Assembly: GCA_965178125.1 (NCBI GenBank)
Contig: OZ237743.1
Location: 124,001 to 188,000 of the forward strand
Reading direction: 5' to 3'
DNA: 64,000 nt
From: Bilabrum cf. latius
Taxonomy: Eukaryota
The position numbers and the translations under genes are program-made. Each line of letters opens with the position of its first letter. Positions within the stretch are counted from its first letter, which is position 1. Shown piece by piece: positions 2,023 to 40,816 of the stretch. The notes beneath the pieces were generated by a model. It was not told the DNA's origin and ran no database searches. It saw only the letters and a list, made by a program, of their open reading frames with translations.

Positions 2023-2061
<39 letters not shown>

Positions 2062-4960
2062 AGCTGCCCAACGCGGGGCAAACGGGGCAGCAAGGGAAGC
2101 CTCGGGGCCGCAGTCGGCTGCTGCTACGATTGCCGGCCCGGCGCAGGCCCAGCCCATGGGCGTGGCTCGTCTGAAGGGGCTCAAAGGCAGGGCGGAATCG
2201 CTGAGGCGGGCCAGCATGGACGTGCCCGCCCTGTAGCGAGTGTCCAGCGCGGCGCAGATGGCCAACGCAATGACGAACGCGGACAGCGTCGGGTTCGTGG
2301 GTGCCGCTGCGGGTGGGCCTAGCTCGCTGGACACAGGCAGCGATGGTGTGGGGGGCGGGACGGGCAGCCACGGGTCCTTCGGTGGCCGGCTGCAGCGGAG
2401 CGCAGCAGGAAGGGGGGCGGGGGGGCATGGGATGGGCGCTGCTTCGACCCGCGCGGGGTCGGGCCCCGCTGCCATGGCCGGCGGCAATGCCTCGTCCTCG
2501 TCCTTGTCGTCTACCAGGGGCTCTCTGGGAGACATGCCGCCCCGGCTTGCGCGCCGGTCTTCTCTGCTGCACGGGGGTAGCCGGCTAGCGAGGGAGGCCG
2601 GGACCGAGGCTCCCGCCGCCGGCGGTGTGACGAGTGCATCCAGCGGCATCACCGATGTGTCGCCGGGAAGCGGGCCACCGCCGAGCGAGGATGCCCCCGG
2701 CGGGCTGGATCTCGGGGAACACGCCAGCGCGGTGGAACACAGCCACGACGTAGACGGGGATGATGACGAGGACGAGGGCAAGGAGGATGATGTTGATGGA
2801 GAGCGCAAGGCAGAGCATGCAGCCACGGGAGGCGATGCAGGAGCAGGGGGTGGCTAGGCGGCCTCTGTCTCCGCCTCGCGAGGTGGGACCAGCACTGGGA
2901 CAACAGGCGCGGCCACCCGGGAGCAGCTCGCCCTCGACGGTCCTCGTTCCTCCACGAGCGCCTCCTCGGGGTACGACCACGAGGCTGACGAGCAGCTGTT
3001 TGCCTACCGGAACCTGATCTACGACACAGTCACCTGCGGTGCCTTCGTGGCGCACACGATGCGGTTCTCGGCCGGCAAGGACATCCTGAGCGCGGCCCAG
3101 CGGCTGCTCTCGGTGACGCAGAAGCGCATCCGGCGGGAGATAGAGGCCTAGCCTCGGCTGCTGGCCATCCGCCAGCTGCTCATGCAGGCCCAGAGCACAC
3201 CGGAGGAGAGGCTGGCTGCGCAGCACCTGCTGCTGCACTGCTCTGACCCGCGCCGGCTGCGGCTGCTCCCCGCCACTGGCGACCCCGCGCTGGAGGACCT
3301 GAACCGAGCCGTGATGGCCGAGGTAGACGCGCGCTTCTCGCTGGAGCTGCGCACTGAAATGATCATGTGCCAGGCCGCCACTGCGCTGGTCACTAGCTTT
3401 GCCAGGAAGATGCGGCTGGTGCAGCGGTACCTGCCCGAGGTGGAGGGCGGGCGGCTTTTGCAGCAGTACATGCAGGTGGGCTTCCTGGTCGAGTTCGAGT
3501 CTTTGCTGTCGGCGTGGGGGGATGAGTACCACATGATCCGAGATTTCTATGCGGCGGTCCGTTCCCTCGCCCGCTTCAGGATCAGGCTGCTGCCCCCCCT
3601 TCCTCCCGACGTGGAAGAGGTGCACCATCGCCGCGATCGCCCTAGACATGCAAGGGCGGGGGAGTGGGCCGGGGCAACTGCCGAGGCAGCCCCGATCACC
3701 GATGGGCGGCAGGTGCGCGGCACCGACGACTGGCGGGCGGGGAACGGCGGCGCGGTCCGCCTGCGCCGAGAGGGCCCCTTCATTGTGATCGAGATGCGGC
3801 TGTGGCCCATGCGGCCCCTGAAGGGGGAGCACAGGCAGAGGGTGCTGCGGGAGTCGTTCGGGCTGGGCATGGGACACGGGGAGGGGGGCGGGGTTGGTGC
3901 CGGGGATCGGGACCACCCCCCTGGTGTGGGCGGGGTAAGGGGTGGCCCCTAGGGCGCAGGCCCCGCGCCCCGCCCACTGGCCCCGGATGAACAAGAGACA
4001 GGGCTGAGGAGGCACCCGCTGTACGACCTCGACCCCGCGCTGCGTCGGCTGGTGCCTCTTGAGCTGGCCGCCGGTAAGACCATCGCCGTGGTGCCTGTCA
4101 TGTTCTCCATGGGCGTGAACGAGTTCCACTACCTGGGCTCCAAGGCGTCCATCTTCCTAGACATGGAGGTGCACAGGAGGATCAACCTCGTGGAGTTCCA
4201 TCGGCTGCTCGTGTACTTCACTTCGTACAAGCAGTACTACCACGAGGAGACGGAGAAGCTGCGGCAGCACGCCGTGGAGGAGGCCCGCCTCAGCTGGGGC
4301 AAGGTGGGGGCTGCTTTCCAGGGAGTGCAGCCCGCTGCGGTGGGGGACCTGGCGGGGCGCGGCGCAGACGAGGAGGAGGGGGAGGGGGGTGGGGATGGCG
4401 GCGCAGGAGGCGGTTCCGGTCTATCGTCTGCTGGTGCTGGCCCCGGTGCTGGCCCGGGGTTCGGTTTCGGTTTCATCCGTCGAACCGCTTCCAAGGGCGG
4501 GGCGGTGTCCCCGCTGGTCCCCGACTCGGCGCTGCCCCCGGCCGTGCGGCTTGAGCTGCGGCGCCGCGCGGAGAAGATCGAGCTGCTGAGCGAGAGGTTC
4601 CGCAAGCTGGCGGAGGCCGTGGCTCAGGACCCGACGATTCAGTCGATCGAGGCGCTGCGACAGGCGGAGGAGCTTGTGCGGCGGCTGCACGGGGGGCGGG
4701 TCACGAGCTGCAAGAGCGGCAAGGACAGGACAAGCATGATGGTGACCCTCGAGCAGGCGAGCATCTTGCAGCAGGAGCACGGGCTTAGCGGTCTGGAGCG
4801 CAAGGAGGTTGCTGAGATCATGAGGAGGCACGGGACAAGGCGAGCCAACGTGCTCAAGAACGTGGGCAAGGCCAAGTACGCCATCAACACGATCCAGCAG
4901 TACTTCTTTAACGATGAGCTGAGGCCTCCAACCGGAATGGGCGGCGCCAAGCAGACATGA
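2..4960 (+). CDS. INPP4: Inositol polyphosphate 4-phosphatase (INPP4-type), 5'-truncated by the window edge; single frame with 8 in-frame TAG codons
   Basis: ORFs 14-253, 257-1189, 1205-2020, 2240-2857, 3182-3952 and 4052-4960 share one frame and are separated only by TAG (5, 251, 1187, 2018, 2234, 2855, 3149, 3950). The gene ends at TGA 4958-4960. It has the catalytic CX5R motif TSCKSGKDRTSM plus INPP4-like segments YDTVTCGAFVAH, GFLVEFESLLSAWGDE and PVMFSMGVNE. Confidence 0.9.
2018..2061 (+). repeat. (CAGGAG)n coding microsatellite (QE repeat) whose first Gln position is TAG
   Basis: tag gaa cag gag cag gag cag gag ... is read directly from the sequence. Confidence 0.9.
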
Positions 4961-9418: not shown

Positions 9419-11098
9419 ATGCGCAACCTCCTGATTGCTTTCATTGCGTGTATCACTGCTGCATTTGCCAGACCACGCCACCTGCGGATGAATTTGATCA
9501 GAAAGGAGGGTTCCATGCGGTTTGCCTGGAATCAGCTGCAAACGCCGCAGTATCCTACGCTTGCACTGGGTTCGTCCCCCACAAACATGTCCCAAACAAT
9601 AAAAGCGCAATGTCATACCTTCAGTTAGGGAGATCTCTGCGGTGCACCCGCCACGGACCCGGAAAACTGGGTCAACCCTGGGTTCGTCTGTGTGGCCACA
9701 GCGTCTGGACTGCCTCGCGACGGAAAGCCAATGTACTACTCCGTTGGCGATGGAATACAAGCCGCTAATAAGTCGGATGTGTTTGAGTTCCGTCCGAGTC
9801 CAGTGGATACCACCGGGACAACCGCACGGTTGCTGATAACCGCAGACACTGGGACCACTGGCCACGCCGTTGCGACGCTGTCCAACATGAGCAAAGCCAT
9901 CGAGCGCGCCGAGAACTTGAGTACCAGCCATGGGATCGTTGACACCAGCTCGTTCGACCGTCCCGTGGACCTGGTGCTGTTCAATGGAGACCTTAGCTAC
10001 GCCATGGGCAAAGCTAGCAAATGGGACGAGTTCTTCTCACAGATGCAGGGCATTGCAGCGCGGGTCCCAGTGAGTTTCTCGGTGGGGAACCACGAGTTCG
10101 ACTGGACTGGGCAGGCCTGGGATCCCTGGTGGTCGGACATCTGGTGGGACACTGGCTCCCAGGGCGAGTGCGGCCTGCAGTACGACGCTCGGCTGCAGCA
10201 GGAGGGGCCAGCGCCACCAGGGCCCCGAGGGAACAACTGGACGGCCCCGGGGTACTACTCGAACGTGAACAACTACTGGTACAGCGTCAACCGCGGCCCC
10301 GTGCACGTGATTGCGCTCTCCACGGAGCACAACTACACGACCGGGAGCCCCCAGCGGCAGTGGCTCGAGAAGGACCTTGCAGCAGTGGACAGGACCCCCG
10401 GGCGGGGAGGCACCCCGTTCGTCATCGTGATGTTGCACCGGGCGCTCTACGACACCACGCTCAGCGCGCTTCTTCCCGAAGAGTTTGCTCTCCGGTACGA
10501 GCTGGAGCCCGTCTTTGAGCGGTACAACGTATCGCTGGTGCTGCTCGCGCACATCCACAACTACCAGCGCACATGCGCGGTCTACGACGGCAACTGCACG
10601 GGGTCCGATGGGTGGGCCCCCGGCATGCAGTTCCGGTCCTCGCAGTCCCTCTCGACCCCCGGGGCTGTCCCCAGCATGGGGCTCGGGGAAATCGAGGCCC
10701 GGCGCCTGGCTTTGCAGGGGCTGGAGGAGCGGCGGGCGAGGGCCATCGAGACTGGGCACAGGGGGGTGAGGGCGGTCGACGGGGTGAGCCTTGACCCCAC
10801 CGGGGGGGCGCTGGAGCGGGAGCTCAGGAGAGCCCCGGGGACGAGAGGGGTCTACGGCGGGGATGCGGGGGGTTCCGGGTCCCCCCCACCAAGGGGTCGG
10901 CCCTACGTGGTGATCGGATCAGGGGGCAAGACATCGGGCACCCGGTTCTGGGTGACGGACCCGGAGTGGCTCGCCTTCCGGTCGGAGGAGTTCGGGTACC
11001 TTGACCTCGTGGTGCACAACCAGTCGGTTGCAACCGCTAGGTATGTCTCGGATCCTGACGGGGTGGTGCTGGACGAGTTTTCCTTCGGGCCCTACTGA
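9419..11098 (+). CDS. Secreted purple acid phosphatase / nucleotide pyrophosphatase-like metallophosphoesterase
   Basis: Signal peptide MRNLLIAFIACITAAFA. N-terminal domain TFS[TAG 9626]GDLCGAPA...WVNPG. Metallophosphoesterase motifs ADTG, GDLSYA, GNHE, VMLH and AHIHNYQR. Ends at TGA 11096-11098. Confidence 0.9.
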
Positions 11099-11693
11099 CC
11101 ACTGGCACCGACCGGGGATGTGGAAGGGAGCTTGGGGCGTGTGCATGCGCCGCCAGGGCAAGAATCGGATGGGCTCTGGGAGGACCGAATTATAAGGATG
11201 AGAGTGACTGGTTGAATGAATTTCGGTCGGCGCGGTGGTGCGCCACGGTCCACTGGGGCCGTTGCTTGCTTGCGCTGTCGGCATAAACGAACAAATTCGC
11301 TCTCTGGATTTGTTGAGCAATCAGTGAGATCAAGGAAACGGTACATTCATTCTGCCCACGGCCGGGCAGGCATGTTGTCGTACGGCCGTCACCTGGACGA
11401 AGTGCCGCTACTGCAAGCGTACCTCTCTGGGAAGCGCAGAATCGATGAGGGCAAGCAGCACGACAGATCTCATCACGTTTCTGAAATCCCGGAGCTCACA
11501 AGAGCGCGCGGCGGAGTACGCCTTCACGCAGATGGGGAAGAGCCAGCTTGGTGACCGCGAGCGAGGACACGCCGACGTGGCTGAGGCCCTGCTGCACCTC
11601 CGCGACGACAGCCACAACCGCGCAGCCCAGCACCTTACTACCGCAGGCAAGGTTGATCTAGACAAGGAGCTCGTTCTACTGCTGCTCGAAATG
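11039..11693 (+). repeat. Left copy of a ~660-bp diverged direct repeat (partner at 24985-25647)
   Basis: Colinear near-identity by eye from aggtatgtctcggatcctgacgg to gacaaggagctcgttc...ctcgaaatg. Confidence 0.9.
11372..11693 (+). pseudogene. Decayed 5' fragment of the F-BAR gene (copy of 25300-25647)
   Basis: Relative to the intact copy it has a 30-nt deletion (SIADEAKAVV) and a 1-nt frameshift near 11460, and it is truncated at about 11693. Confidence 0.8.
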
Positions 11694-11736: not shown

Positions 11737-14700
11737 TCATGCCTCTTCTCCATTGTCCATGGCCCCCTTGCGATCTACGCTAGCAGTCGCACTGTTTGCC
11801 CCCACGACCACCGGGCCCTGCTTCTACTCCCAGTCAGTCAATGGGGGCAGCTGCACCCCGTGGCCAGTCATAGCTCGCAATCCCTTCGACCCTGCCATTG
11901 CCCTGTCCACAGGATGCTTTTTAGCAGTGCCTCTTCTTGGGATCTCCTGCTCACGCCGGTCCGTATCACCTCCGAATACAACTGAACCAGCCAGGGAGCA
12001 CGCCTCCCGCACCTTGCCGGTGATCTCCCATCGCAGCACCCACACGCACCAGAGAAGTACCCCCACGTTCGACAGGAACACCACCATTGTGGCTGTTGTC
12101 AGCACGGCATCGCTCGAGTTCTCGTCGTGCAGGAAGAGACCCGCCTCAAATGTCAAGAATGCTCCCACCAGCGCCACCAGCTCGAGCGTGTTGAGCGCCG
12201 TGGCTTCGTACGGCTGATTCAGCGAGTGCAGCACAGCAGCGGCGAAAATCACGGCGATGGCGGAGTACGTCTGCACGCGCACGCCCATGGGCTCCACCAG
12301 CACCGTGATGGCCACCACGGCCAGCTTCCTCAGCATAATCACCACTTCCCAGTAGTACGCGTGGTCCCTAAAGCCGGCCGTCAGGAAGCCCATAGTGGCG
12401 ATCACGCCAGGGGCATGCAGTCGGTCACTCACCCACCAGAGTCGCAGTCCAGCCAAGAGCGGGATCCCCACGGCAAACACCAGGATGGCTGGAACGCCCA
12501 CACCGTACATGATCTGCAGCGCTCTGGGGTTGTGGCAGCACACGTCAAGGTCCAGGACCAGCCGCCGGTCTTCGAACCCTTCGGGGCATTCGTCATGCCC
12601 CGCCGGACTCGTGGCTAGCGGACCCATCTGCTGGTCACCACCGTCTAAGTCTACATCTGGCTCTAGGCTGGTGCATGACAGCATCCCGAACGATGCCTCG
12701 GTCAGCGTCAGATGCACCAGGAATGCGATCACAGTCAGACCCGAGAGGATCCGCATCCCCAGCGGGAGCTTCACAGCGGCTAGCGGCACTCCCACGCAGC
12801 CCAGTACAGTTCCTTCGCGCCGACTAGAAGCGAGCCAGAAGTACTCAGCCACTGGAGGCAAGGCAGCAGCAGGCACGGGACCCATAGTCACTGAATCAGC
12901 ATGTGACTAGGGCACAGCGGCACCGCCCTTCAAGCTTGTCGATACTGCCGTGTCTTGACCGAAGGATCTGGTGGGGACTGGAGCACCGCTGGACCCAGAC
13001 AGCAAGGACCTGAATCGGCTAGTGCGCTGCCGCATGATGCCCGACCGGCGAGCAGCGCTCCCCTTGCCTTGGCTGCTACTGGTCGTGATTGGGCTGCGTG
13101 GGCCAGGGTCGGAGCCGTGCCCACCATGCCGAGGTGCAGACGCGCTTCTACTCGGGCTCGATTCACGGTGCTTCTCGTTTCCGCTTGGCACGCCGCGCTC
13201 CTCGAGCACCGTCTCATTGCCCTGCCGCACCCTAGCGAGCGGATTGAAAGTCATCCTTTTCCTGGCAATCTAATCGTTGACCGGCTTCCCTTGTCTGTGC
13301 CCACCCTGACTCGCAGATTGAATCCCAGTAGCACCTGGACTCTCAGCTCCCCCTTCCTCCTCTCCTTCTTCCTCGTCTTTATCACCGTCAGTGACAACCT
13401 CCTCGGGCTCGTGCAAGCACCCGTCGATCAGATCCACAACCACCCAGAACAGGGCCAGTCCAGCAGCAAGCAAGAACGGAGTCAGCAGCACCACAATGGT
13501 GCGAAGGAGATACGAAGATCCGTGCGGCATGTTGGCTGCAAGGCCGCCCTGCATCTGCTACAGATTCACCCCCAGCACGTTCTCTTCGTGCATGGCAAGC
13601 GCCTCGGCAAGCACCCGCTCGTCCTCCAGCTGGGTCCCAGGCCACGTATCGTGCGGTGCACCCGACGTGCCACTGACACCGGACGCTCTACTGCTATTGT
13701 GTTGTTGCAGAATGCCTGTCCAAGCCTCCAGCGCAGCTGCCTGTCTGTTCTCTTCTGCACTTTCTTGCAAATCTCCAGTGCCCTGCTGCAGCATGCAGTC
13801 CAGGCTCAGCACTTCTGAGCTGACTGATGACACGGAGCCCATGGTGTTGAACAGGCGGATAACACCATCTGGCCAGTTGAGTTTGAAGGACGCAGCGATT
13901 GCCACCACCTACACATGCGAGAAGAGGATCTTGATGGTGGCCATACCCACGTTCTGGCCCCCGGCCCGCTGCCCGTGCCCTCGCTGCCTTGGCTGTGCCA
14001 CGTCAGCAGCACCCGGCGCGCGTCCAGTTGCAGTGCCGGGGGCCATGTTGGCTGTTCTGGCGCTGGTACTAGTGCCAAAGTCTGCCCCGGCTCTTCCAGC
14101 AGCATGTGTGGCCGTAGTTGTCGATGCATGCTAGTCTCTGTCCTCGTTTTCGTCCGAGGAGCTGTCATCTCCTAGCAATTCCATCAGCCGTTGGTGTTCC
14201 GACTGCACCGGCTGCCTGTTTGCGGGGCCCATGGAAGATGCACCACCTTGCAGCACGAGTGCTAGCGGATTTGTGCTTCTCAATGTCTATTCCACTGCAG
14301 GCTGCTTGGGATACGCCTTCCCTACCGGTTTCAAACCCGACTAGGCCGCGCGCTAGTTTAGAGCAGGCGCGCTAGCAGCCTCACTTGTGGTCAGTTGCAC
14401 TGTAGTAGCCCCCTGCTTTCCTGCAGCAATCTTTTCCCTACCATCACGGGCGTAATCACCGCCTTGCTTAGCCTCCATCGCTGCCAGCGCGCCCTTCCGC
14501 AGCGCATTCAGTACAAGTCCGATGGCCAGCAGCAGCACGGCCATAGACACTAGAATCGCCACAAGCACAACCACGAAGCCGCTCTGGCACTTGCGGCACT
14601 CGGATGGACCCCATGTTGTGTACCCTGGCATGCATCTGGCACACAGCAGCCCCCCGTACCCCTCGGCGCAAGTTTCACCAATCCACAAGGGGGCACCGGC

Positions 14701-17700
14701 ATCAATCAGCGAGGAGACATCCGCAGTGACCTGCACCGTTGTCAGATTTTCCATTGAATCCGACACGTACCTCGCCCGCACCAGCGAGGCTGACTCCACG
14801 ACCTGCTCTCGCTGGTACAAAGTGGAGATGGTGGGAACTTGCTGCTGCTACTGCTGCAGCTGCCTCTCGAGGGACCTGCGCACGTGCGGTGGAGCACGCG
14901 CAACTAGCCTTCTGGTCTGCGTCTGATTGATGCTGAGGGACGTTAATTCTGGCGGGGCACCATCGACCAGCGAGAGACATGATTCTGGCCGTGGGCACCG
15001 AGTGAAGGCAACCCTTCCTGAGGCCCACGGAATCCGCTAGTATCCTGGGGCTGCAGCAAGCGTAAAGGAGGACCCGCCCCTGCATCGAGTGGCCAGCTGG
15101 TCGCATGATCTGCAGCCCCAGTCCTCAGGCTGCAGGTGCGTGGTCAGAAACTCGCTCTAGGCGCAAGTCGAGGGTGATCCGGGGGTCCACGAGGAGAAAG
15201 GGCCCGGGCCCGCCTCGCTGATGGACCGGATCCGGAGGGCCATGGGGCGGGGGTCGATGGCAGTGAAGGAAGTCCGCATGAGTGCCAATCCGCCCGCGGA
15301 GCTTGGCCTCACGTCTATATCAGAAAGGTCAATTCGGAAGGCAGCGGCTTCGTCTTCTTCTTGGTCTTGATCTGCCCCGACTGAGGCAGCACCGGAAGCT
15401 GGTTCTCGTTCTCTCGTCAAGTTTGCCCCGCTCACGCCAAGCAGCCTCGATTGGATCTCAAACCCGTCCAGTCCCGCCAGTCCCTCCGCCACGATCTGCA
15501 CCTGCCCCGGGTCACGGAAGGTCCAGCGCACCTCGAACCGTTCGTTCCTCTCCCTCCAACCCTGAATGGAACTTGCAACGTATGGCCATGGATCTCCGAT
15601 GACGCCGTACGTGAATAGCGGGGCCGTTGCCGGATCGCTGGATAGGCCCCCACTCTAGTGCACCACTACCTGCAACCCGTCGATCTGGTCCTCCTCCAGC
15701 TGAGGCACCACGCACTCGATCGAGGTCTCGCCCAGTACAACCACGTCCAGGCACTCGTGCGGTCCCAGCATCACGCGATCTGCATCATTATTTTGCCGGC
15801 CCAGGCTGCGCCCTGCAATCACGAGACGCTCCCCGGCTGTGGCGCCGCTTGGGGCCACCGACGTCACTATTGGCCGCCCCAGTGCGGTGAAGAAGCGGTT
15901 GCGAGGACTCGTCTGCTGGGCCACCTGCACCTCAACCTCAGATTCACCCGGCCAGCTAGTCCCATTCACGCCAGTGCACAAGATCTCCGTGCTGGATACA
16001 AGGCGCACCGCACTGCAGGGACTGCCCCCGACTGACACACGCTCCACGTCTGACTGCTCGAATCCGAAGTGCACTCCTCTTACCGTGAACTGAGCTAGCA
16101 CCTGTGGCCCCGTCAGGCTGTACGATGGCTGGATCTCCTCCACCAGCGGCCGCTCGTAGCTCACGGTCGCTTGCGTAGACAGCTATACGGAGCCACCGGC
16201 CACTTGCGACTCGTCGTTACCACCGCCTTGCTGCACTTCTTCCGCAGAGCTCCCGCCCAGCGTGTGCACCGATACCAGCACATCCACGCCCACGCCGGGC
16301 TCGCAGTACGCCAGCAGCTCAGTGTCCGACACCCACAGCACCACGCGAGAGGGCCCACCGCCCACTTCCACACGATCCACAGCCCAAGGAGCCACACCCA
16401 GGCCCTCACCTCTGATCTGCAGCAGCCCAGCGGAGGAGGGCGCTCCCACCAGCGTTGGCGCAATGCTTGATACGGCCACCGCATCCAGGACCACCGAGGT
16501 TCGACCGCTGGGCGCCACTTCTCCGCCCAGCCCTGCTGCCTCCAGCAGCAGCTGCAGCTCATGTTGCGCTGTAGTCACCGACCCAAGAGCCACCTGAGCC
16601 CGACGCGCCGCTCCTGCGAGCACAGCGTCAGCACTGCCGTTGGAGGGGAACAGCCGCGGGCTCAGCACCTGCACAGCCGGGCGCCCCACCAGCAGCACCG
16701 TCCCGCCCGGACTAGACTGGGCCTGCAATAGGATCGATTCTTGCACCCCATCCAACTGGCCCGATGCATCTTGTGTCCCCACACTGAAGTGAACGGACAC
16801 CAGCTGCAGTGCATCAGAGAGCTATTGGCCAGACGCGGCCGAAGCAGCTGCCTGCCAGTCTACCACTGTGCACTGCACCCTGGAGATCACACGGACCGCC
16901 TGTGCGGATGCCGAGCTGGCGCGTACTGCGTGCAGTGACACGTTGGTACACGACGTATTCCACCCCTGGCCATCCAGCCGCACCAAGCCTGCGCCTCCCG
17001 TTGTCACACGGTCCCACTGAGACAGGGCCGATCCTGCATGACTCACGTCCAGCAGGAGCCGCAGACCCGCTTCTAGCAGATAGGCAGTGGCGCGGGGATA
17101 CGTGCTGATGCTGCCACTGTCTACACTGCTTCCGTTGGCCCTAGTGACAGCCAACGAGCCCGTCCTTCCTGGGTTTGGGCCTCCTGAGAATGTGGCCCGC
17201 GTGATCACTGGAGCCGCATAGTCCACAGTGGGTGCAGTGTCGATTGCATTCTCCCCGTTGCGCACAGATAAAACCTGCACCCTATGCCCAATACCCACAC
17301 CTGGAGGCAGCAAACACCGGAGTCGAGTGGCCGGCTCCAGCATCACCAGCTCAGTGCAAGCGTAAGTCCCAACCTGCACCCGGGCGATGGTGTCCACGGT
17401 GTTGCCGAGCCCATTGCCCTCGATCACGATCCACCCGCCATCGCCGGACACGCGGCCAGCAGGCACGCCATCGACAGCATCAGGTGTGACTGACTGCACC
17501 TGTACAGGGGGCTGGAACTGGAAGCCCGTAGGAGCAACGGATTCACGACCCGTAAAAATCACTCGCACGCTGAAATCCCCGGGGGTCCATTCCGGCCGAA
17601 TCTAGGTGCATTCCATTGTGCTGTCGTTGTGCACAAGCACATCGGGGCATTCTTTCCCCGAGATCACCATCCGTGGCGAGGTGCCGTTGCCGCCCGTCCG

Positions 17701-20700
17701 AGCAGACCCAAAATGACGGCCTTGCACGGTCACGCGATACACAGATTCTTTGTCGTTGAAGATCGTGTCTGGGTCCACCAGTACCGCATCGATCTCAGGG
17801 GCTAAAAAACGCACCACACCTGCGCTGCTAGCGTAGCTTCGGCCCTGTCGAGAGCGCACAGTCACTATGCCATCCGAGCCTGGACTAGGCATTAGTGTGC
17901 AACTTATCACGAAGTCAGACTCGGCCGATACGTTAACACATGGTGCCCCATCCACGTCGATGCTTTCAATGAACCCGCCGTCCACGGCCCCCAGCTGGAT
18001 GCCGACCAGCTGCAGCTCCGTGCCCCCTGCAGGACTCACGATGGACGGATTGGAACCGAGCACGGTTGGATCCACCCTGGCGAAGAGCTGGCTTGAAGAC
18101 CACTCGGCCAGCTGTGGCGGCGGGTCCACGTTGCTGCTCCACACCCCTGTCTCAAAACTTTCCCTCGGGTCAGCTGATAGCTGTCGCCATTCCTGCGCAT
18201 GCAGTCTGGCCCGCTCCGACCTGTTCGACTCCAGCGCGGCATTGAGCGCGCCTATCGGTCGAGGTACCACCCGCAATTCGTTGGAAGCCACGAGATGCGC
18301 CCGCACCGAGCATCGGAGCTCCGTGGCGGACACAATGACCAGCGGGTCGCATCTTTCCCCGCCTAGAAAGATCGCCCCGACATTGATCTCCATGCGGGAT
18401 GTGACGAGTGCAGTCCCTCTGAGGATAACCGAGTGCCTGGTGGAGTTATTTACGTTGTTCTCCACCATCGAAGACACGTCAATGGTGGGAGGCTCCACGG
18501 CCTGCACTGCGGCGGGGGCCAAGTCGACCCACGCTGGTATCGCGTCAACCGAGGACACATTCCCTCTTGCCGGTGCATCGTCGTCTGACACGCTGCTCTC
18601 CTATTCCCTGTCCGCCACGACCACCACAGCGGCCGTGTCCAGCCATGATAGCCCGGGCAGCTACACAGACATCGATACCGGGCCACCGATCGCGCCTGCA
18701 GGCGCAGTGCACAACAGCTCCGCTGCCCCCGGTGCGCGTTCCAGAATGCCGTCGCAGGGGTACACTCCAAGAGTCCCGCGCAAGGACTGCCTCGAAAGAG
18801 TCAGGGCAGATGACTCGAGCGAGGACCATACTTGAGACAGACCCCCGGTGGAATCCCGACTACCCATCGAGAGCACTGCAGCTCCCTGCACCCAGCCCAG
18901 CCCCAGCGATCCCCACCCGTCACCTCGTGGTACAGCTCCGATCACGCCGCCCTCACCAACGCTGGCAGGCCAATTGCTGCCGCTGCTGATCAAGCCAATC
19001 GCACCCTGCATGCCCACCGCAATACAATGCACCTCATCTGGTCCGGGAGCTGCGTCGTCGATGGTTTGCCCGCTGGCTAGTTCACGCAGCAGTAGCTCGC
19101 ACGCCCTTGGGTCGTTGCTAGACACGACTACCTCGCCAACGCTGCCCCCGTCAGAACCGGGCAAATGCACCTGCACCTCGGCCACGCCCGGTAGCAAGGG
19201 CTGCTCGGGGGTGCACTGCAGGATGGTGCGCATGCCTTCGTCAATGGCAAATGCACTGGACACTGGACACCGGACTCCACCTGCCCACACATGCCCAAGC
19301 TCATGCACCCTGCCGAGCTCCGATGGACGGGGCAGGTGCATTGAACGATGGGCCATCACAGCAATACCATCCCGGATTCTGCCCGTGTACACAGCCTGAC
19401 AATCACCCACAGGTCCCACATATTCCACCACGCCAGTTGCAGTATTGCCCTCGCTACCGCGCAGCTCCCCTTCGGACAGCAGACAACCAGCCTATGCCAC
19501 ATGCCTCAGCAGTGCCTAGCCATTCCACCCAGCCGCTGCATCTTTGGCAGATGCCGCATCTACTGCTGCCCCCAGTGCCACTACGTTTGCTTCTGTGAGA
19601 GGTGCAGCCCCCATTCCATCACTCGCTAGGCTCTCGTTCAGTGCACTGCACATCGCCTGCTGTTCGCTGCAGTCCAGCGAGGCTTGCAGCGCCTGCGCCA
19701 CGGGCAGCATCCACGGAGGCCTCGAATGCAGTCTGGTGGTGTTGGCCTTGTATGCTACTAGCCCACGCCCACTGCATCCTGGCGATGCTGCCAGCAGGTG
19801 GACCTCTTGGTCGCTGATGGATGCATTGGGCTGAGCAAATGTAGCGAGTGCAGTGCCGAGCTAGCAGCCGGGTCCAACGCCGGCGGGAACAGGAGCCTCG
19901 ATTCGCTCCGAGCTCAACACAACCGCTGCATCGGATGATGAGTTCTGGGTTGGGCCCAACCGGCTCCTCTGATCCACCCGCAGCAGCACTACTGCACCAG
20001 CAGCGTCGTCAAAGCCAGGTGCGCCCACAAACACGTCCATCGTACGGTCCAGTCCAAAACCCAGGAGCTCAATCGAGGCCCCAAAGCGGGAGCGCTCGAA
20101 CTGCCCCGGCCAGTGCCCATCCAGTCGTAAGGGCATCCGGGCAGGGGATAGGAGCTGGTGGTCAGAGACAGACATGGTTAGAGATCCAGCCGGGTCCTGT
20201 TGCACGGCCAGGTGTAGCAGCACCACGGCTCCGAATCTCCTGTCCTATCCAGACAGCGACAGATCCACCCAGTCAGGCGCGCCTACCAGTATCGACACCT
20301 CGCCAGTGGCCTGGCCAGGCCCCCATGCTGTCTCTTGCCTCTCCTCCCGAATCGGGCCCAGGTACTCGAGCGAGGCCCCAAAGCTGTCGCGGGGTGCTCC
20401 TGTGACGGACTGTATCACAGCGATGCGGGTGCCGTTCCAGTCTCCCCTTGGACTCTTGCTTGTCGTAGATGGGCTGCCTGTTGGGTGCAGTGCATGCACA
20501 TGCAGCTCTCCCTGCTGCGGTGCCCCAGCCGCTACAACTGGTGCGTGCATTCTCCTATGGCCAAGCATCGACTGGCCCAAGAAACCCACCGATGCACCCA
20601 GCGAGGTAGGCCCGCTGGCTACCGTCACATTGGAGAGCAGAGCCGTTGGTAGTACAACTCCACTGGCACTGAGAGCTGTCCCTGTCGCCAATCGACTGGC

Positions 20701-23700
20701 ACTGAGAGCTGTCCCTGTCGCCAATCGACTCACCCACAGCTGTCCTCTGGATGCGTCCCCCACCAGCAGGGAAATCGACCCGTCCCCCGCGCCCAGAGGC
20801 CCCAGCGAACACGCCGCGCTGCCATCTAGGAGCACCCTCATGCCAGCAGGCGGATGGTCTACGGCAGGTGCACCATGATCGTTTACTGTCGCAATCCTGG
20901 CATGCAGCAGGCCCCTGCTGACCCAGTTGTGGTAGCCCATCTCAGGCCCCGTGCTTGCCTGTCTGTCAACCTCTAGGGGTTCACCCTCCAACGCAACGAA
21001 CCTTCGTTGGCTAGCCCCCAGGATGCCTATCGACACATCAAGTGAGACAGGGGATGGTGATAATGATCTTGTAGCAGAGCCGGGCAACGAAGTGAGGCGG
21101 TGTATGGCTGTGGATTCAGCAAGCTCTGCCTCAGGGCCTAGAGCCAGCACCCACACCGTGCCTCGACCGCTGCCACCGTCATCATCACCGCGCGCCCCAA
21201 CGACAATGTCAACCACACCGTCACCATCCAGATCCGATAGCGATGCCACCGATACGCCAAATTCGTCCACATCGTCCAGCTGTCCCGTGAAGCCCCCTTG
21301 CGTGTCGGAGATCTTCTGATGCCCCTTTACCGTGCCATCCGATCGCAGGAACAGCACCCACACCGCGCCTCGATTGCTGCCACCATCATCGTCAAAACGT
21401 GCCCCAACAACAAGTTCCACCACGCCATCACCATCCAGATCCGACAGAGATGCAAGCGATTGCCCAAACTAGTCCCCATTGTCCAGCTGTCCCGTGAAGC
21501 CCCCTTGCGTGTCGGAGATCTTCTGATGCCCCTTCACCGTGCCATCCGATCGCAGGAACAGCACCCACACCGCGCCTCGATTGCTGCCGCCACCACCGAC
21601 ACCGAACTCAACTTCTCCCACGGCCAGGTCCACCGTGCCATCACCATCCAGATCCGACAGAGACGCTAGTGACTTGCTGAACCAGTCCCGGTCGTCCAGC
21701 TGTCCCGTGAAGCCCCCTTGCGTGTCGGAGATCTTCTGATGCCCCTTCACCGTGCCATCCGATCGCAGGAACAGCACCCACACCGCGCCTCGATTGCTGC
21801 CGCCGCCGTCATCGTCGCCAAATACTCCCACGGCCAGGTCAATCACACCATCACCGTCCAGATCCGACAGAGATGCCACCGATGTGCCAAAATAGTCCTG
21901 GTCGTCCAGCTGTCCCGTGAAGCCCCCTTGCGTGTCGGAGATCTTCTGATGCCCCTTCACCGTGCCATCCGATCGCAGGAACAGCACCCATACCGCGCCT
22001 CGATTGCTGCCGCCGCCGTCATCGTCATAGAATGCTCCCACGGCCAGGTCCACCGTGCCATCACCATCCAGATCCGACAGAGATGCCACAGATACACCAA
22101 AATTGTCCCGGTCGTCCAGCTGTCCCGTGAAGCCCCCTTGCGTGTCGGAGATCTTCTGATGCCCCTTCACCGTGCCATCCGATCGCAGGAACAACACCCA
22201 CACCGCGCCTCGATCATGGCCGCCGTCATCGTCTGTTGCTGCTCCAACGGCCAGATCAACCACGCCATCACCGTCCAGATCTGACAGAGAAGCCACCGAT
22301 ACACCAAACAAGTCCCCACTGAACAATTGTCCCGTGAAGCCCCCTTGCGTGTCGGAGATCTTCTGATGCCCCTTCAGCGTGCCGTTGCTCTTCACATTAT
22401 TGTTTGCCTGAAGGAGCACGTGGGGTCCTGTGCCCCTTCGCACCTGCACGCTGCTTCCGCTGTCGGACCCCAGCTGCAGCTTCCCATCCCCGTCAATCTT
22501 GCATTCCACCTTGCCGCCAGGTAAACCCACCACTCGATCGCAAGCACCACCCAGGGCTGTAGCTCCAGCTGCGCAGCCATCGGGGACGAGACATGGCACC
22601 TGCCCGAACTCAAACTCCGTGCCATCGTCCCACGCCCTCGTCAGTGACACGTTCACGAACCCCTGGGGCGATACGGACCATCCCCGGATGGAGTCCTCCT
22701 GCAGGCGCACCTCGATTGAGTTGGTTCCACTCGCCACCATGGCGCACCTCGACTGCAGCATAGGGCCTCCACAAGACGTCGTGGGGAAGGGGGGATCAGC
22801 CAGCAGATGGGGGCCCCTGCCAGGGCACCCATGCACGTTCGCATTGCGGGGCCAGAACCGCAGCAACAGGTCCACATTTAGAGTCCCGCCGAGTCCCTCG
22901 GCATACATGTCCGCCCACGCGACTCGCTTCACGGGAAATACGGCCCGATAGGAGTCCAGCAGCTGGCCACCTGCTACCAGCATGAAATGGAACTCCTCCG
23001 CCTCAGTGCCTGTCATGGATGAGTTGTAAGCCAGCTGCACCCGCACGCTGCCTTGCAAATACCCGAGCTACAGACGAGCGCTGGAGGAGGCACACTGTGA
23101 CTGGGTGAGGACAACACGCCTTCCACTGGAATGTGCTTGCCCGGATGCATTAGAGTACAACTATCCGTTGACTTGGTGCGCCTCGATGCCAACGCTCCAT
23201 GGATTGACGAGGCGGGCGGGGTCGATAGTGTAGCTGCCCTCGGCTCCGAGTATCGGAACAATGCTACGCGGGGTGCTGCGCAGCTACAGCACCCACACCG
23301 CACCTCGGTCAGTGCCGCCGTCATCGTCACCAACTACTCCAACGGCCATGTCCACCATGCCATCACCATCCAGGTCCGACAGCGATGCCACCGATACACC
23401 AAAATAGTCCCGATCGTCCAGCTGTCCCGTGAAGCCCCCTTGCGTGTCGGAAATCTTCTGATGCCCCTTCACCGTGCCATCCGATCGCAGGAACAGCACC
23501 CACACCGCGCCTCGCCTGCTGCCGCCATCACCATCATAGAATGCTCCGACGGCCAGGTCCACCATGCCATCACCATCCAGATCCGACAGAGATGCCACCG
23601 ATACACCAAAATAGTTCGCATTGTCCAGCTGTCCCGTGAAGCCCCCTTGCGTGTCGGAGATCTTCTGATGCCCCTTCACCGTGCCATCCGATCGCAGGAA

Positions 23701-24711
23701 CAGCACCCACACCGCGCCTCGATACTCGCCACCGTCATCGTCATAGAATGCTCCGACGGCCAGATCAACCACGCCATCACCATCCAGATCCGACAGAGAT
23801 GCCACCGATACGCCAAAGCGGTCCCAATCGCCCAGCTGTCCCGTGAAGCCCCCTTGCGTGTCGGAGATCTTCTGATGCCCTTTCACCGTGCCATCCGATC
23901 GCAGGAACAGCACCCACACCGCGCCTCGATTGCTGCCACCATCATCGTCACTCAAAGCTCCAACGGCCAGGTCCACCGTGCCATCACCGTCCAGATCCGA
24001 CAGAGATGCCACTGATTGCCCAAACTAGTCCCCATTGTCCAGCTGTCCCGTGAAGCCCCCTTGCGTGTCGGAGATCTTCTGATGCCCCTTCACCGTGCCA
24101 TCCGATCGCAGGAACAGCACCCACACCGCGCCTCGATACTCCCCACCGTCATCGTCATTCAAAGCTCCAACGGCCATGTCCACCATGCCATCACCATCCA
24201 GATCCGACAGAGAAGCCACCGATACGCCAAAATTGTCCCGGTCGTCCAGCTGTCCCGTGAAGCCCCCTTGCGTGTCGGAGATCTTCTGATGCCCCTTCAC
24301 CGTGCCATCCGATCGCAGGAACAGCACCCACACCGCGCCTCGATTCTCCCCACCGTCATCGTCTGTTGCTGCTCCGACGGCAAGGTCGGTCATGCTGTCC
24401 CCGTCAACGTGTAGCAGTGTGGCAACAGACCCACCAAAGCTATTTCCATTCGCAAGCGTACCATCGAAGCTTCCGTGTATGCTGGATATCTTCGTCTGGT
24501 TCCAAACTTTGCCATCACCTGAAGCAGGGGAAGATTGCAACGCCCTTGAGGCAGAGCTTCCATGTAGGGTTTCAGGCTTCGTTCTGCGGTGCGATGCCAC
24601 AAATGAATTTGCTCTCATATCCGCGCATATGCAAGTGGGGACAAACGACGTGACACGTGCAGATACAGTCATGCTTTGCTTACTGACGGGGCCACTCTTG
24701 CATTTCAGCAT
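11737..24711 (-). CDS. Giant (~4,324 aa) cell-surface protein: two FG-GAP (integrin-alpha-like beta-propeller) arrays, several IPT/TIG Ig-like domains, a Cys-rich segment and a C-terminal multi-pass TM domain
   Basis: Seventeen minus-strand ORFs of the track (24025-24711 down to 11824-12891) share one frame. I traced the gaps and found about 27 TAGs and no TAA/TGA until TGA 11737-11739. Motifs: DLDGDG..DLAVGA repeats; IPT-like PVITSVAP / GRNFG / IECVVP patterns; CAEGYGGLLCARC; KILFSHV[TAG]VV..NWP; YYWEVVIMLRKL. The start codon is uncertain. Confidence 0.85.
20662..20727. repeat. Perfect 33-bp tandem duplication (in frame, SRLATGTALSA x2)
   Basis: actggcactgagagctgtccctgtcgccaatcg occurs twice head-to-tail. 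Confidence 0.9.
21130..22385 (-). repeat. FG-GAP tandem array 2: six units of ~207-210 bp
   Basis: Unit KISDTQGGFTGQL-x5-FGxSVASLSDLDGDGxVDxAVG-x3-DDDGG-x2/3-RGAVWVLFLRSDGTVKGHQ is repeated six times. Confidence 0.9.
23284..24490 (-). repeat. FG-GAP tandem array 1: six units of ~207 bp (first unit divergent)
   Basis: Same unit as array 2, with a nearly identical scaffold nucleotide sequence. Confidence 0.9.
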
Positions 24712-24984
24712 TCACCTCCGGAATGAATCTACTGATCTATAACAAACGGATACAACTGATTAGTCCGAACAATTTCATTAACATGCCTTTCATGAAAGCG
24801 AGCCAAAACGTTCTGCGCTAAATTTGGGCCTTCTCTTGCCCCACCAGATCCAGTCAACGTCGCCGTGCTAGACTACCAATTCCGGAATTTGCAAACTAAA
24901 CGCTACTTGTTATGCTAGAGGGTCTTGAAGTCCAGACCAAGTCTAAACCTTCACACAACTTTCAAGAAGAAATTGGAAAACTGC

Positions 24985-25647
24985 AGGTACGTCTCGGATC
25001 CTGACGGCCCGGGTGTGGTGCTACTGTCCACGGCACCGACCTGGGATGTGGAGGGGAGCTTGGGGCATGTGCATGCGCCGCCAGGGCAAGACTGGGGTGG
25101 GCTCTGGTGCGCAAATTACAAGGATGAGAGAGAGTGACCGGTTGAATGAATTTCGGTCGGCGCGGTGGTGCGCCACGGTCCACTGGGGCCGTTGCTTGCT
25201 TGCGCTGTCGGCATTTACGAACGTTCGCTAATTGGGTTCGTTGAGCAATCGGCGAAACCAAGGAAACTGTACATTCATTCTGCCCACGGCCGGGCAGGCA
25301 TGTTGTCGTACGGCAGCATTGCCGACGAAGCCAAGGCGGTTGTTCGTCCGTTGGATGAAGTGCCGCTGCTGCAAGCGTACCTCTCTGGGAAGCGCAGAGT
25401 CGATGAGGGCAAGCAGAGTGTGGAAGATCTCATCGCGTTTCTGAAATCCCGGAGCTCGCAAGAGCGCGCGGCGGAGTACGCCTTCACACAGATGGGGAAG
25501 AGCTAGCTCGGTGACCGCGAGCGAGGGCACGCCGACGTGGCTGAGGCCCTGCTGCACCTCCGCGACGACAGCCACAACCGCGCAGCGCAGCACCTCACCA
25601 TCGCGGATGAGATAGACAAGGAGCTCGTTCCTCCGCTGCTCGAAATG
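24985..25647 (+). repeat. Right copy of the ~660-bp direct repeat (decayed phosphatase 3' end, intergenic DNA, intact F-BAR gene start)
   Basis: Aligns to 11039-11693. Encodes a remnant RYVSDPDG matching the phosphatase C-terminus. Confidence 0.9.
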
Positions 25648-28600
25648 AAGGCCGACCTTGCTGCCATGCAGGGAGAGCTGTACAAATCCGACCGTTTGGA
25701 GCGCAGCCTCCGAAGCGCCGGCGACCGCTGCCGGCGCGCCTACACCTCGCTTCTCTCTGCCCACGGCACCCTCGTGCGATCCGCGAAAGCCGCTGGGAAA
25801 CCGGCACGGGCCTTGTGGAAGGCTCCTGTGGACCGCATATGGTCCATGCAAGAGTTGCGAGAGCGAAGGGAAGCGGCCCGCAAGGCCAGGCCCAAGCCGT
25901 CGGAGGCCCCTCGGCAAGCAGCAAGCTCCGGGAAGGTGACAGCGCCAGCTGGGAGAGGGACAGGAAAGCCGCCCCCTGGTCGCAGCGAGCCTCCTGCGGA
26001 CGCGACGATCGCCACGCCCAAGGCCGAGCAGCCTCCTGCAACCCCTGGCAGCGAAGGGGGCGACGGGGGCGCGACCCCTGGCCAGGGAGGGGGTGACAGC
26101 ACCCCCCCGGGCGGTGGCTCGGTGCAGCGGGCCAGGGTCAGCTCGACTGGGAGCGACGGTTCCGGTTTAGGATCGGCCCCCAGCGGGTCCAACCGTGCGG
26201 GTCGCGCGTCCAGCTCTGCCTCCTCCTCTCAGCCGCAGCCGCGGCAGGGGCAGGGGCAGGGGCAGGGGCAGGGGCAGGGGCAGGGGCAGGGGCAGGGGCA
26301 GGGGCAGGGGCAGGGGCAGGGGCAGGGGCAGGGGCAGAGGCGCGTGTCCAGGGCGGGGAGCGGGGCGGGAGCGCAGCAGCAGGGCGCCTCAAGGCAGCGG
26401 GGGGTTTCTGGCCAGAGGCAGCGAGGAGGTGTGCAACCGGGCGGCACTGGCGCTGGCACCGCCCGCTCTGGGATGATGGGCCGTCTGCAGAGCCTCTTCT
26501 CCGCCCCCGTTGACCCCGAGGAGGCCAAGCAGAAGGACTACGCCTATGCCGTGGAGCAGGACCTCAAAGCCAGGAGGGAGTGTTCCGGGGCGTGGAGGGG
26601 GTACAGGGACGCGAAGACCGAGTACCTGGAAGGCGTGGAGGCGGCCTGCGGCAGGATGGACGAGATCGAGTCCAGAAGGAGGGCGCTGCTGGCGGTGACC
26701 GTCAGGCACCTGCTGCTGCACCAGAGCAGCATGCTTGCCAACCTGCAGTTCGACACCCAGCAGGCCGCTAATGTGGCGGGGGACGCCGAAGAGGCCGCGA
26801 GGGAGCCCCTGCCCCCGCTTGTTCCCCGGCCCTCCCCTCAGGGGCAGACTGGGGGGGAGGTATCTGCGGCGGTGCTCAAGATGAGGAGCCGCAGCAGGAC
26901 GGGGTCCCAGGCGCTGGGTCTGGGCAAAGAGGGGGCGCGGGGGGGCAGCGGTGCGGCAGGGGGTGGTTCCGCAGGCGCCGCGCGCGTCAAGCCGGTGTCC
27001 CGTCAGCAGATGGGCGCCGGCCTGCGGCCCGGGGTCGTGCAGTACGCCGTGCATCTCGCCTTTGCTGCCCGCGGGCTTACTCTGGGCAAGACGCTCTCGG
27101 GGACAGTAGCAGGTGCAGGGGCAGGGGGGTCATCTTCGCCCCTGGCTGCCGCCTACATGGCTCTGCCTGCTTCGGTGAGGAAGGACGTGCAGCTGAGGGA
27201 GCTGGTGTGGACGGATGCGTCGAGTGACGACGAGGACGAGGAGGGGCAGGGATCGGGAGCAGAGCGCAAGGCCGGGGCAGGGGGCAACTCCTCGATGGAC
27301 CTGGAGCGGCTCATGTGGATGGACGGCGCCGTGCTGGCTGGCGCTGGCAGCAGCAGGCATGGGTCCGGCGGCAGGGGCTCGGAGGGGGGGGCAGGGGGGG
27401 GGGGATGCCTCGCCGGGCACGCCCAGCGGCTCACAGGCCGGGGTGAGGAGAATCGGGGGCGCGTTTGACGGCAGCTGCGTGTTGGTGAGCGAGAAAGCGG
27501 CCATGACTGCGCCCGGCAAAGCAGCATCGGCCGATGGCGGCCCGCAACCCGTGCTGGCCACCGTGCGTGAGATGCTCCGCGCCGCCGTTCCCGCCGCCAA
27601 GCAGGCCCTGGACAAGGCACAGGAAGGAGGAAGCGGGGCACCCGCTGCCGGTGCAGGCAAGGCATCGTCGCCAACGTCCAAGCCGCAGCAGCCCAAGGCG
27701 CCAGATGCAGTGCGCCAGCTGGTCGCGGCGCTTGACGCCCGCAGGTCTAGGGGGGTGCGCTGCGGGTCCGAGGATCTCGTCGTGGTGGCCGGGCTGGTGC
27801 GACTTGCATTGGATGCAGTGCTGGCGGGCGAGCTGCACCAGCTGGGACGGTCGTTGATGGTCCTCGGACAGACCGCACACTGCATCGAGCGGCAGTCGGG
27901 AAGCAATGGGGAGATGGAGGGGGATGGGCCTGCGGCGCGGGCGGCAGCAGAGGAGCAGGCCAAGCGGGCCGATGACGAAGCAGTAGCTGAGGATTCGCGA
28001 TAGGACGGCAAAGCCGCGTCTGGCGCCGGTGCATCGGGTCAATCCGGCGAGAAGGACTCGGACGGCGGCAGCGGCGCGGTGGTGCGGCGTGCGAGCAGCG
28101 GAGGGGGGGCCGGCAACCGGGTGTACCTGCGCGATCTGGTCCTCTCTCACCCGCTGTGGCAGTCTGCGACCTTCTGGGAGGCGTGCGTGTTCGAGACACT
28201 GGGCGCGGAGATGTCCAAAGTGGCGCCTGTGGGCGGGGCAGGGGGGTCGGGTGCCCCCGGTGGGGGGCTGGGGGGCACCCCCTCGGAGCCCGAGGCGCAG
28301 GGTAGGGAGGAGAGAAGGAGGTCCGAGGCGGCGGTGGGGTTTGGACAGCTGCACTTCTGGGCGTTCGCGATGAGTCAGTACGGGGTGCGCCGGTCGGACA
28401 TCGTGCGGATGCTGCACAAGTACCGCGTGTTTATGGGGATCGAGGACGCGCAGTGGGAGGCGCTGCTGGGGGCGGCGGGGGTGCAGGAGGGAGGAGGGAA
28501 ATCTGGCGAGATGGGAGATGCAAAAGGGGCTGAGAAAGGCTCTGAAGAGGCTCCCGGAGAGGAGGCCCCGGCGGCTGTTCACGCGACCGACGCCGAGCCA

Positions 28601-40466: not shown

Positions 40467-40816
40467 TCTGCTAAATAGGCGTGCTGGCTGGGCTGTGTGC
40501 TATATAGACCTTGTTACTAGCAGGCCCTGGAGCCGGTGGTGAGTAGCGAACACTTTGGCTGAATGCCGAACCGGTAGCACTAGGACGAGATGCGCCCGGA
40601 GTGACGCACTCCTTAAATTGTATAGAAAGAGGTGTGGTAGCAAAGCGTGAGGGTTTGCGATTTGTTTTGTTTCAGAATGAAGCGCCCCGGATGAAAGATG
40701 CCGCGTTCCAGTTCCAAGGTTCCGGTCGGCGGCGTTGCGTGCATTTGGACATGCCTGCTTGGATCCACCCCGTTCTAGCTTTTACGTGTCTCGCAGAGAA
40801 CCTCTCGCGAGTAAAC

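Follow-up and report, generated by a model that had tools for sequence, protein, structure and literature searches.

The 64,000-nucleotide (nt) stretch of the GC-rich protist Bilabrum cf. latius analyzed here (contig OZ237743.1 of assembly GCA_965178125.1, positions 124,001 to 188,000; hereafter the window) contains, on its minus strand, a giant open frame whose product carries two arrays of FG-GAP repeats. Our results suggest, with a confidence that is fair rather than high, that sub-blade gene conversion operates in a presumed ligand-binding ectodomain formed by the two predicted six-bladed FG-GAP propellers of this giant protein. A 96-nt block is almost identical in nucleotides in ten of the twelve blades, even at synonymous sites, whereas the sequence between these blocks, including the loops of the presumed binding face, is diverse. 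The locus had previously been proposed, from the sequence alone, to be a candidate diversifying receptor with homogenised scaffolds and hypervariable loops (the original prediction), and our data lead us to favor a different emphasis.

Tandem Repeats Finder identified two arrays, at 21208-22383 (period 210, 5.6 copies) and at 23279-24363 (period 207, 5.2 copies). Minus-strand translation resolved them into 12 units, each starting with FG and together spanning 24438-21145; units u01-u06 constitute array A (24438-23287) and units u07-u12 array B (22308-21145), and the last unit of each array (u06 and u12) stops after strand 3 (GAVWVL / GTVWVL). In Pfam the units correspond to FG-GAP (PF01839), FG-GAP_2 and FG-GAP_3; besides PF01839, the accessions PF14312 and PF13517 matched. 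The score of PF01839 on the whole protein (E = 4.2e-60, 199 bits vs. a curated cut-off of 22.1) identified it as a member of the FG-GAP family (VCBS supercluster). The DLDGDG motif was present in 11 of the 12 units, the exception being u01, which has HVDGDS. The variants that the original prediction had listed for two short loops were all recovered, namely DDRDN (twice), DNGD plus TAG (twice), GDWDR, DNANY, DDRDY, FSGDL, DDQDY, DDRDW and DDVDE for loop 1, and AAT (twice), ALN, ALS, AFY (three times), VVG, VFG, EVE, ARF and ARG for loop 2, as were the residue pairs EN, EY, SN, SR, TD, HD and SG. One of them needs a correction, since the variant reported as DNGDQ does exist but its Q is not spelled as such: in both copies the codon is TAG, which closes the variable 4-1 loop of u02 (24027-24025) and occupies the same position in u10 (21471-21469).

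The homogenised part of the unit is a core of 96 nt out of 207 (codon-alignment columns 36-67, RGAVWVLFLRSDGTVKGHQKISDTQGGFTGQL), which runs from strand 3 through the 3-4 turn and strand 4 into the beginning of the 4-1 loop. It is found on the minus strand at 24247..24342, 24040-24135, 23833-23928, 23626-23721 and 23419-23514 in array A, and at 22117-22212, 21907-22002, 21697-21792, 21484-21579 and 21277-21372 in array B. Ten occurrences of a 50-nt stretch taken from the core were counted in the window, eight of them exact and two with a single mismatch, against 0 expected from 100 shuffles; a scan of metagenome contigs for exact copies of this stretch gave 0 matches. In the codon alignment of the 12 units, the proportions of synonymous (pS) and nonsynonymous (pN) differences in the core were 0.046 and 0.003, whereas columns 1-23 (FG...LAVGA, from strand 1 via the DLDGDG loop to strand 2) showed a pS of 0.41 in spite of a protein conservation equal to that of the core. 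When only degenerate columns with an invariant amino acid were considered, the codon varied in 6 of 30 core columns and in 9 of 9 columns of the FG...LAVGA part (Fisher p = 2e-5), and each of the six varying core columns was due to one deviant copy only. Codon bias cannot account for this identity, because the pairwise codon identity of the core is 0.963, as compared with 0.400 predicted from the codon usage in the rest of the gene, and because the single codon used in 6 of the 30 core columns is one whose share is less than 0.25. These data agree with the nearly nucleotide-identical scaffold that had been described for both arrays.

The twelve modules located between the cores behave differently. 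A representative one, at 24136..24246 on the minus strand, runs from the end of the 4-1 loop through strand 1, the DLDGDG loop and strand 2 to the 2-3 loop. The modules are mosaic and share 51-87% of their nucleotides; their synonymous divergence (dS) is ~0.6, and their loop codons differ by several letters. The stretch encoding DNGD-TAG-FGQ was found only in modules A3 and B5 (the TAG codon of u10 lies within it), A2 and B2 have common 5' ends, an AFY segment is common to A4, A5 and B2, and B2, B3 and B4 have common 3' ends. A pairwise-homoplasy-index (PHI)-type test gave p = 0.0085 with either 11 or 12 modules, 464 of the 820 informative site pairs being incompatible; this was our own implementation of the test, and recurrent mutation at variable sites could add to its signal. 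The mosaic structure of the modules, the stretch shared by A3 and B5 and the difference in pS between core and flank thus support the exchange between units that the original prediction had put forward. Judging from the sequence, concerted evolution inside the gene and across its arrays A and B appears to hold for the 96-nt core only, and we infer that the blades are old and that the identity of their cores stems from repeated short-tract gene conversion between them.

A mechanism can be envisaged in which short-tract conversion among blades would keep the 96-nt block identical in its ten complete copies, in both propellers, the perfect match being in turn a self-sustaining substrate for recombination. 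Conversion tracts would end at the adjacent divergent loops, or selection would remove those that extend into them. Rarer exchange would move pieces of modules, and because of such occasional transfers the same loop variants would recur in new combinations.

AlphaFold2 models, built with an alignment of 57 homologues, provided a structural frame for these observations. Propeller A (23260..24528, minus strand) comprises an N-terminal closing strand and units u01-u06, with a predicted local distance difference test score (pLDDT) of 96.4 and a predicted template modelling score (pTM) of 0.94; propeller B (21127..22386, minus strand) comprises a closing strand and units u07-u12 (pLDDT 96.1, pTM 0.94). 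Both models have 24 strands, arranged as six four-stranded blades, the last of which is completed by the N-terminal strand. Along the blade, strand 1 (FGVSVAS) is followed by the 1-2 loop with the calcium-type DLDGDG motif, one per blade, strand 2 (DLAVGA), the 2-3 loop (loop 2 of the original prediction), strand 3 (GAVWVLFL), the 3-4 turn (RSDGT), strand 4 (VKGHQKI) and the 4-1 loop, at whose end lies loop 1. In both models DLDGDG is located between strands 1 and 2, as expected, at the level of the motif, for a cation-binding loop, and the variable residues fall in the 2-3 and 4-1 loops. By propeller topology, these two loops would occupy one face of the propeller and the 1-2 (DLDGDG) and 3-4 loops the other, in line with the earlier proposal that the variable sites cluster on one face. 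Variation in unit number finds no place in this fold, since closure of the propeller needs six blades and thereby sets the number of units per array.

In structural searches, Foldseek ranked integrin alpha propellers first (E = 1e-18, template modelling score about 0.6), and the VIA search returned integrin alpha-4 with a Z of 29.3 (root-mean-square deviation 3.5, 345 residues aligned), on a par with six-bladed NHL propellers (Z 28). Integrins bind their ligands via the face formed by the 2-3 and 4-1 loops. By analogy, the likely function of the two propellers would be the calcium-dependent binding of an extracellular ligand, either a glycan or a protein, with contact residues that differ from blade to blade; a role as a receptor is suggested by the architecture only.

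Is the variability of the loops a peculiarity of this gene? A search with array B yielded 3,905 proteins at E <= 0.001 among 8,000 scored candidates, and the family figures given here are those of 120 listed homologues. Their identity in the repeat part is 46-73%, and every named one is a protein from a bacterial metagenome-assembled genome, annotated as "integrin alpha" or "FG-GAP repeat protein". We cut these homologues into 928 units by means of a profile made from the window's own units. The most variable columns of the family were 3, 24, 25, 31, 32 and 67, plus 17, and because 7 of the top twelve variable columns coincide with those of the window, the position of the variable loops is a family-wide trait. 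When the units of one protein were compared with each other at the six loop columns defined for the family, the share of residues that differ was 0.76 in the window, whereas the family median was 0.84 (5-95%: 0.59-0.91, n = 120), and 23% of the proteins had a loop diversity equal to or lower than that of the window. The loops are therefore not exceptional, as their designation as hypervariable had implied. It is the core that departs from the family: columns 43, 48-50, 57, 61 and 63 show 2.4-3.4 bits of entropy among the homologues and are invariant in the window, and the within-protein core identity of the homologues has a median of 0.70 and a maximum of 0.88, with 0 of 120 reaching 0.95. The locus would thus be better described as one with a hyper-homogenised scaffold than as one with hypervariable loops. 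The ratio of nonsynonymous to synonymous substitution rates (dN/dS) amounted to 0.35 in loop 2 and to 0.82 in loop 1; a value of 1.71 was obtained at eight columns, which had been picked for their variability, so that this estimate is circular. Accordingly, these values do not support the diversifying selection proposed in the original prediction, a dN/dS above 1 being confined to this post hoc set.

Five sequencing runs from two studies contain the stretch. The short-read contigs of four of these runs showed 0 differences to the modules listed for them, had single-copy depth and broke at the core borders; one study contributed three of these runs and the other a single run, in which two modules were matched, and the two studies may share a strain. 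As the contigs match the modules exactly and break at the cores, the homogeneity of the core is present in the reads and is not an artefact of polishing. The modules that these contigs cover were the same in both studies, which speaks against a diversifying receptor. In run X1 the summed depth of the core was up to 552, compared with about 10-18 in unique parts, a figure that is not convertible to copy number. Moreover, in runs X1, X2, X3 and X5 contigs of the region 21000-24800 leave the core into sequence that does not belong to the window (share unlike the window, 0.09-0.24), with many loose ends. This suggests that other FG-GAP genes, in the same or in co-sampled organisms, share part of the core.

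Reading the gene as a single frame depends on the meaning of TAG. The frame of 4,324 codons (11737..24711, minus strand; its start is uncertain) is bounded by TGA at 24714 and TGA at 11739 and contains 27 in-frame TAG, 0 TAA and 0 TGA. When TAG is read as sense, four more giant frames of 3,514, 2,375, 1,652 and 1,581 codons are revealed in the window (53454-63998 on the minus strand and 40475-47602, 2-4960 and 47568-52313 on the plus strand), with 95 in-frame TAG distributed over 9 frames, and the summed length of the frames of at least 500 residues increases from 6,787 to 25,537 amino acids. With TAA as sense there is hardly any gain, and TAA is missing from the two largest frames although they use CAA often. 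Pfam domains extend across TAG codons: a CRT-like match extends from profile positions 74-335 to 3-335, and the N-domain of a purple acid phosphatase appears once TAG is read as sense. In addition, the stops of 12 putative genes comprise 10 TGA, 2 TAA and 0 TAG. TAG thus behaves as a sense codon in the window, with TAA and TGA as terminators. The amino acid is probably glutamine, as judged from a few sites and in agreement with the DNGDQ of the original prediction. Of the 35 TAG sites of a DUF3638 protein encoded in the window, 34 are uninformative and one lies in a well-aligned block, where Q is present in 7 of 7 homologues; TAG also occurs within CAG CAG _ CAG CAG CAA and within two (EQ)n tracts. 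The structure alignments of SecA, CRT and the purple acid phosphatase were uninformative, each having one TAG in a non-conserved column. Besides the two loop codons mentioned above, one TAG (23284..23286, minus strand) falls in the last strand 3 of propeller A, at residue 415 of the model (strand E409-416). Under the standard code the FG-GAP gene and several other genes of the window are split into fragments, and their correct annotation needs TAG as a sense codon.

The same form of code, with UAG as sense, corresponds to NCBI table 15. Codes in which only UAG is reassigned and UAA is kept as a stop are described by Panek et al. 2017 for the fornicate Iotanema spirale (glutamine) and for a rhizarian (leucine) (PMC5304391). 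The window resembles them in this respect, but the nearest named relative of a protein encoded in it is from the stramenopile Cafeteria roenbergensis; no report of a nuclear code with UAG as sense in a stramenopile was found among the literature matches listed.

The observations described above could be explained otherwise. The most radical alternative is that the gene is dead or an assembly artefact, its TAG codons being real stops and its cores originating from collapsed or over-polished repeats. The standard code does cut the frame 27 times and no contig spans an array; nonetheless, all 27 interruptions are TAG, the absence of TAA and TGA holds over 4,324 codons and likewise in the four other giant frames, Pfam domains cross the TAG codons, none of the 12 putative genes ends in TAG, and read-derived contigs reproduce every listed module exactly and break at the cores. 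We therefore rejected the pseudogene reading of the in-frame TAG, and give the explanation as a whole hardly any credence. A recent amplification from a single blade, followed by fast divergence of the loops and without ongoing conversion, would have precedents, because repetitive propellers amplified from single blades, FG-GAP members included, are described in a recent survey (PMC9218822). Such an origin should, however, leave all synonymous sites of the unit alike, and the tenfold difference in pS within the unit (0.41, with 9 of 9 columns varying, vs. 0.046 in the core) excludes it in its simple form; as the loop codons also differ by several letters, we regard this explanation as highly improbable. 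Nearly as improbable is that the identity of the core is held by selection on the nucleic acid itself, as an RNA structure, an antisense product or the target of a small RNA or of a recombination system. The sharp borders of the block and the rare codons fixed inside it would fit this idea. Against it, a 96-nt stretch offset by 9 nt from the core (including 87 nt of one copy) folded no better than its shuffles (z = +0.61, 144 of 200 folding at least as well), Rfam had no match above the gathering threshold in the window, and at E up to 1 the region 21000-24800 contained one weak match to a snoRNA model (E = 0.39), which lies outside the core.

The alternative closest to the original prediction is an adaptive, fast-diversifying recognition receptor, whose loops would be under positive selection and whose blades or loop modules would be shuffled between arrays, alleles and paralogues to yield a repertoire that recognizes prey or pathogens, according to the model of the WD40 genes het-d and het-e of Podospora, a precedent documented in PMC1805685. 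Several of our results are compatible with it: the mosaic modules with their recurring loop variants (PHI p = 0.0085), the dN/dS of 1.71 at the eight most variable columns, the contigs that leave the core into unlike sequence and hint at other core-bearing loci, and the location of the variable loops on one face. However, those eight columns were chosen for their variability and the values for whole loops are 0.35 and 0.82; the same columns are the most variable in the 928 units of the 120 homologues, and the loop diversity of the window is below the family median. Furthermore, the modules are old (dS about 0.6) and identical in contigs of two studies, possibly of the same strain, and the six blades demanded by closure fix the number of units. 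We consider this explanation unlikely and favor sub-blade gene conversion in a ligand-binding ectodomain.

What the data establish is the anatomy of the repeats, the contrast of core and module, the family-wide placement of the variable columns, the predicted fold with its loop topology and the reading of TAG as sense, whereas conversion as the mechanism, the extracellular location and ligand binding are inferences. Several points weigh against the reading that we favor. None of the five runs is listed as RNA, and since no contig spans an array, the order and number of the units are those of the assembly. The sharp borders of the core could also stem from selection on the nucleotide sequence itself. 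As to the function, the location of the variable loops on one face was derived from strand order and propeller topology; ligand binding is extrapolated from relatives; and a clear signal peptide was not found ahead of propeller A, where the start codon is uncertain.

The product of the giant gene is a multidomain protein of ~4,300 residues, probably an ectodomain on a multi-pass membrane anchor, as the part behind the propellers contains about seven hydrophobic segments in addition to IPT/TIG domains and a Cys-rich stretch. The two propellers, which lie at the N-terminal end of the protein, are separated by a linker of ~290 residues (22387..23259, minus strand) with two in-frame TAG, for which no family match was found. 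They are followed, in this order, by degenerate FG-GAP-like sequence, IPT/TIG domains, a Cys-rich DUF7630-like stretch and hydrophobic segments. On the whole protein TIG scored E = 6e-28, with three matching stretches, the best-scoring domain comprising residues 2947-3029 (15625..15873, minus strand); the open reading frame 17605-18591, taken by itself, also matched TIG. The first strongly hydrophobic segment (residues 3379-3397; 14521..14577, minus strand) is located after the Cys-rich stretch, and six further ones lie between residues 3739 and 4226 (window 13497-12034). At E up to 0.001, Pfam detected the FG-GAP families, TIG and DUF7630 only, and no integrin leg domains (thigh/calf). A search for orthologues with residues 2250-4300 gave one weak match only (E = 2e-12, 13% coverage), which we rejected as an orthologue, as it is a TIG-array protein. 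ARAGORN made a single call in the window, an 87-nt tRNA-Thr (GGT) at 21543-21629 on the minus strand. This call is probably false, as it sits inside the repeat array, where a search with Rfam at E up to 1 gave no tRNA.

Some features of the gene and its surroundings are worth mentioning. Downstream of propeller B, a 33-nt unit of the same gene is tandemly duplicated (20662-20745, minus strand). The gene is flanked on both sides by a direct repeat of ~600 base pairs (11092-11693 and 25021-25647; 88-90% identical, in two blocks), possibly a segmental duplication or the trace of an insertion, one copy of which overlaps the start of the neighboring frame 25150-27468 (plus strand). In this neighboring frame, a (GGCAGG)16 microsatellite at 26243-26341 (plus strand) encodes a (GQ)n tract. 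Farther away, the frame at 53454-63998 (minus strand) runs off the window and has at least 3,514 codons, 35 TAG and the domains DUF3638 and DUF3645; its best named relative is a protein of Cafeteria roenbergensis, named ubiquitinyl hydrolase 1 in the source (40% identity, E = 5e-194). The frames 40475-47602 and 47568-52313 (both on the plus strand) are rich in ankyrin repeats, and the latter ends in a SecA-like motor domain (SecA structure in the PDB, E = 8e-62). They overlap by 35 nt out of frame and may belong to a single gene interrupted by a frameshift, by a small intron or by an error in the sequence.

The relevance of these results lies in the level at which concerted evolution would act, namely below that of the repeat unit: half of the blade is identical to the letter, and the half that would face the ligand is old and diverse. 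The locus thus offers a natural case in which to ask how the limits of conversion tracts, or selection, protect the diversity of a binding site in a closed repeat fold. To our knowledge, the receptors of heterotrophic protists for prey and pathogens are largely unknown, and if it is true that paralogues exchange modules, the gene would belong to a candidate recognition repertoire in such an organism. A bolder version of this idea, which we consider unlikely, is that the identical cores serve as built-in recombination joints through which loop-bearing modules are swapped between propellers and paralogous genes, providing a bacterivorous flagellate with a combinatorial, calcium-dependent repertoire for the recognition of prey or pathogens, that is, an extracellular counterpart of the HNWD proteins of Podospora in a code where UAG is glutamine.

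The family to which the arrays belong is that of the bacterial and archaeal integrin-type FG-GAP propellers. The window gene has in common with these proteins, which include the set of Chouhan et al. 2011 (PMC3192720), the repeat consensus, the single calcium-type site per repeat, the tandem propellers and the variable columns. It differs from them in that it is eukaryote-like and part of a membrane protein of 4,324 residues, in its predicted six blades, the propellers being seven-bladed in that account, and in the identity of its blade cores, which contrasts with the within-protein identity of the homologues given above. Metazoan integrin alpha chains gave the best structural matches and have FG-GAP motifs and calcium-type loops in common with the window protein. 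However, their sequence identity to it is 17-24%, and they have seven blades and a single transmembrane helix with a short tail, in contrast to the six blades per array and the approximately seven hydrophobic segments found here. Because of its six blades, its many hydrophobic segments and the lack of leg domains, the protein is not an integrin.

Highly repetitive propellers amplified from single blades, with FG-GAP members in archaea and bacteria, are described by Pereira and Lupas 2022 (PMC9218822), and blade segments that are nearly identical in nucleotides are common to those propellers and the window gene. In the latter the host is eukaryote-like and the identity is limited to a sub-blade segment between old modules, and it is this limitation that leads us to favor conversion over a fresh amplification. 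As that survey lists FG-GAP propellers of the highly repetitive kind for bacteria and archaea only, a eukaryote-like instance would extend their range.

In behavior, the closest analogue would be the HNWD family of Podospora anserina (het-d, het-e), whose WD40 repeats undergo concerted evolution, both inside a locus and from one locus to another, with four positively selected surface residues in every repeat, according to Paoletti et al. 2007 (PMC1805685). The repeats of that family form propellers and vary at a few residues each on the surface of interaction, and their exchange inside a locus, and possibly between loci, would be the nearest parallel to the way in which the window locus may operate. 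The two systems differ in the fold, which is WD40 there and FG-GAP here; in the nature of the proteins, which are cytoplasmic NLRs in Podospora and include a putative ectodomain in the window; and in the selection on the variable residues, positive there, whereas the loops of the window have dN/dS values of 0.35 and 0.82. In HNWD the whole repeat is homogenised and the repeat number is variable, whereas here the homogenised part is limited to 96 of the 207 nt and the number of blades is set at six. Compared with these systems, what is new is that homogenisation is confined to a part of the blade, and that this occurs in a giant membrane protein of eukaryote-like character.

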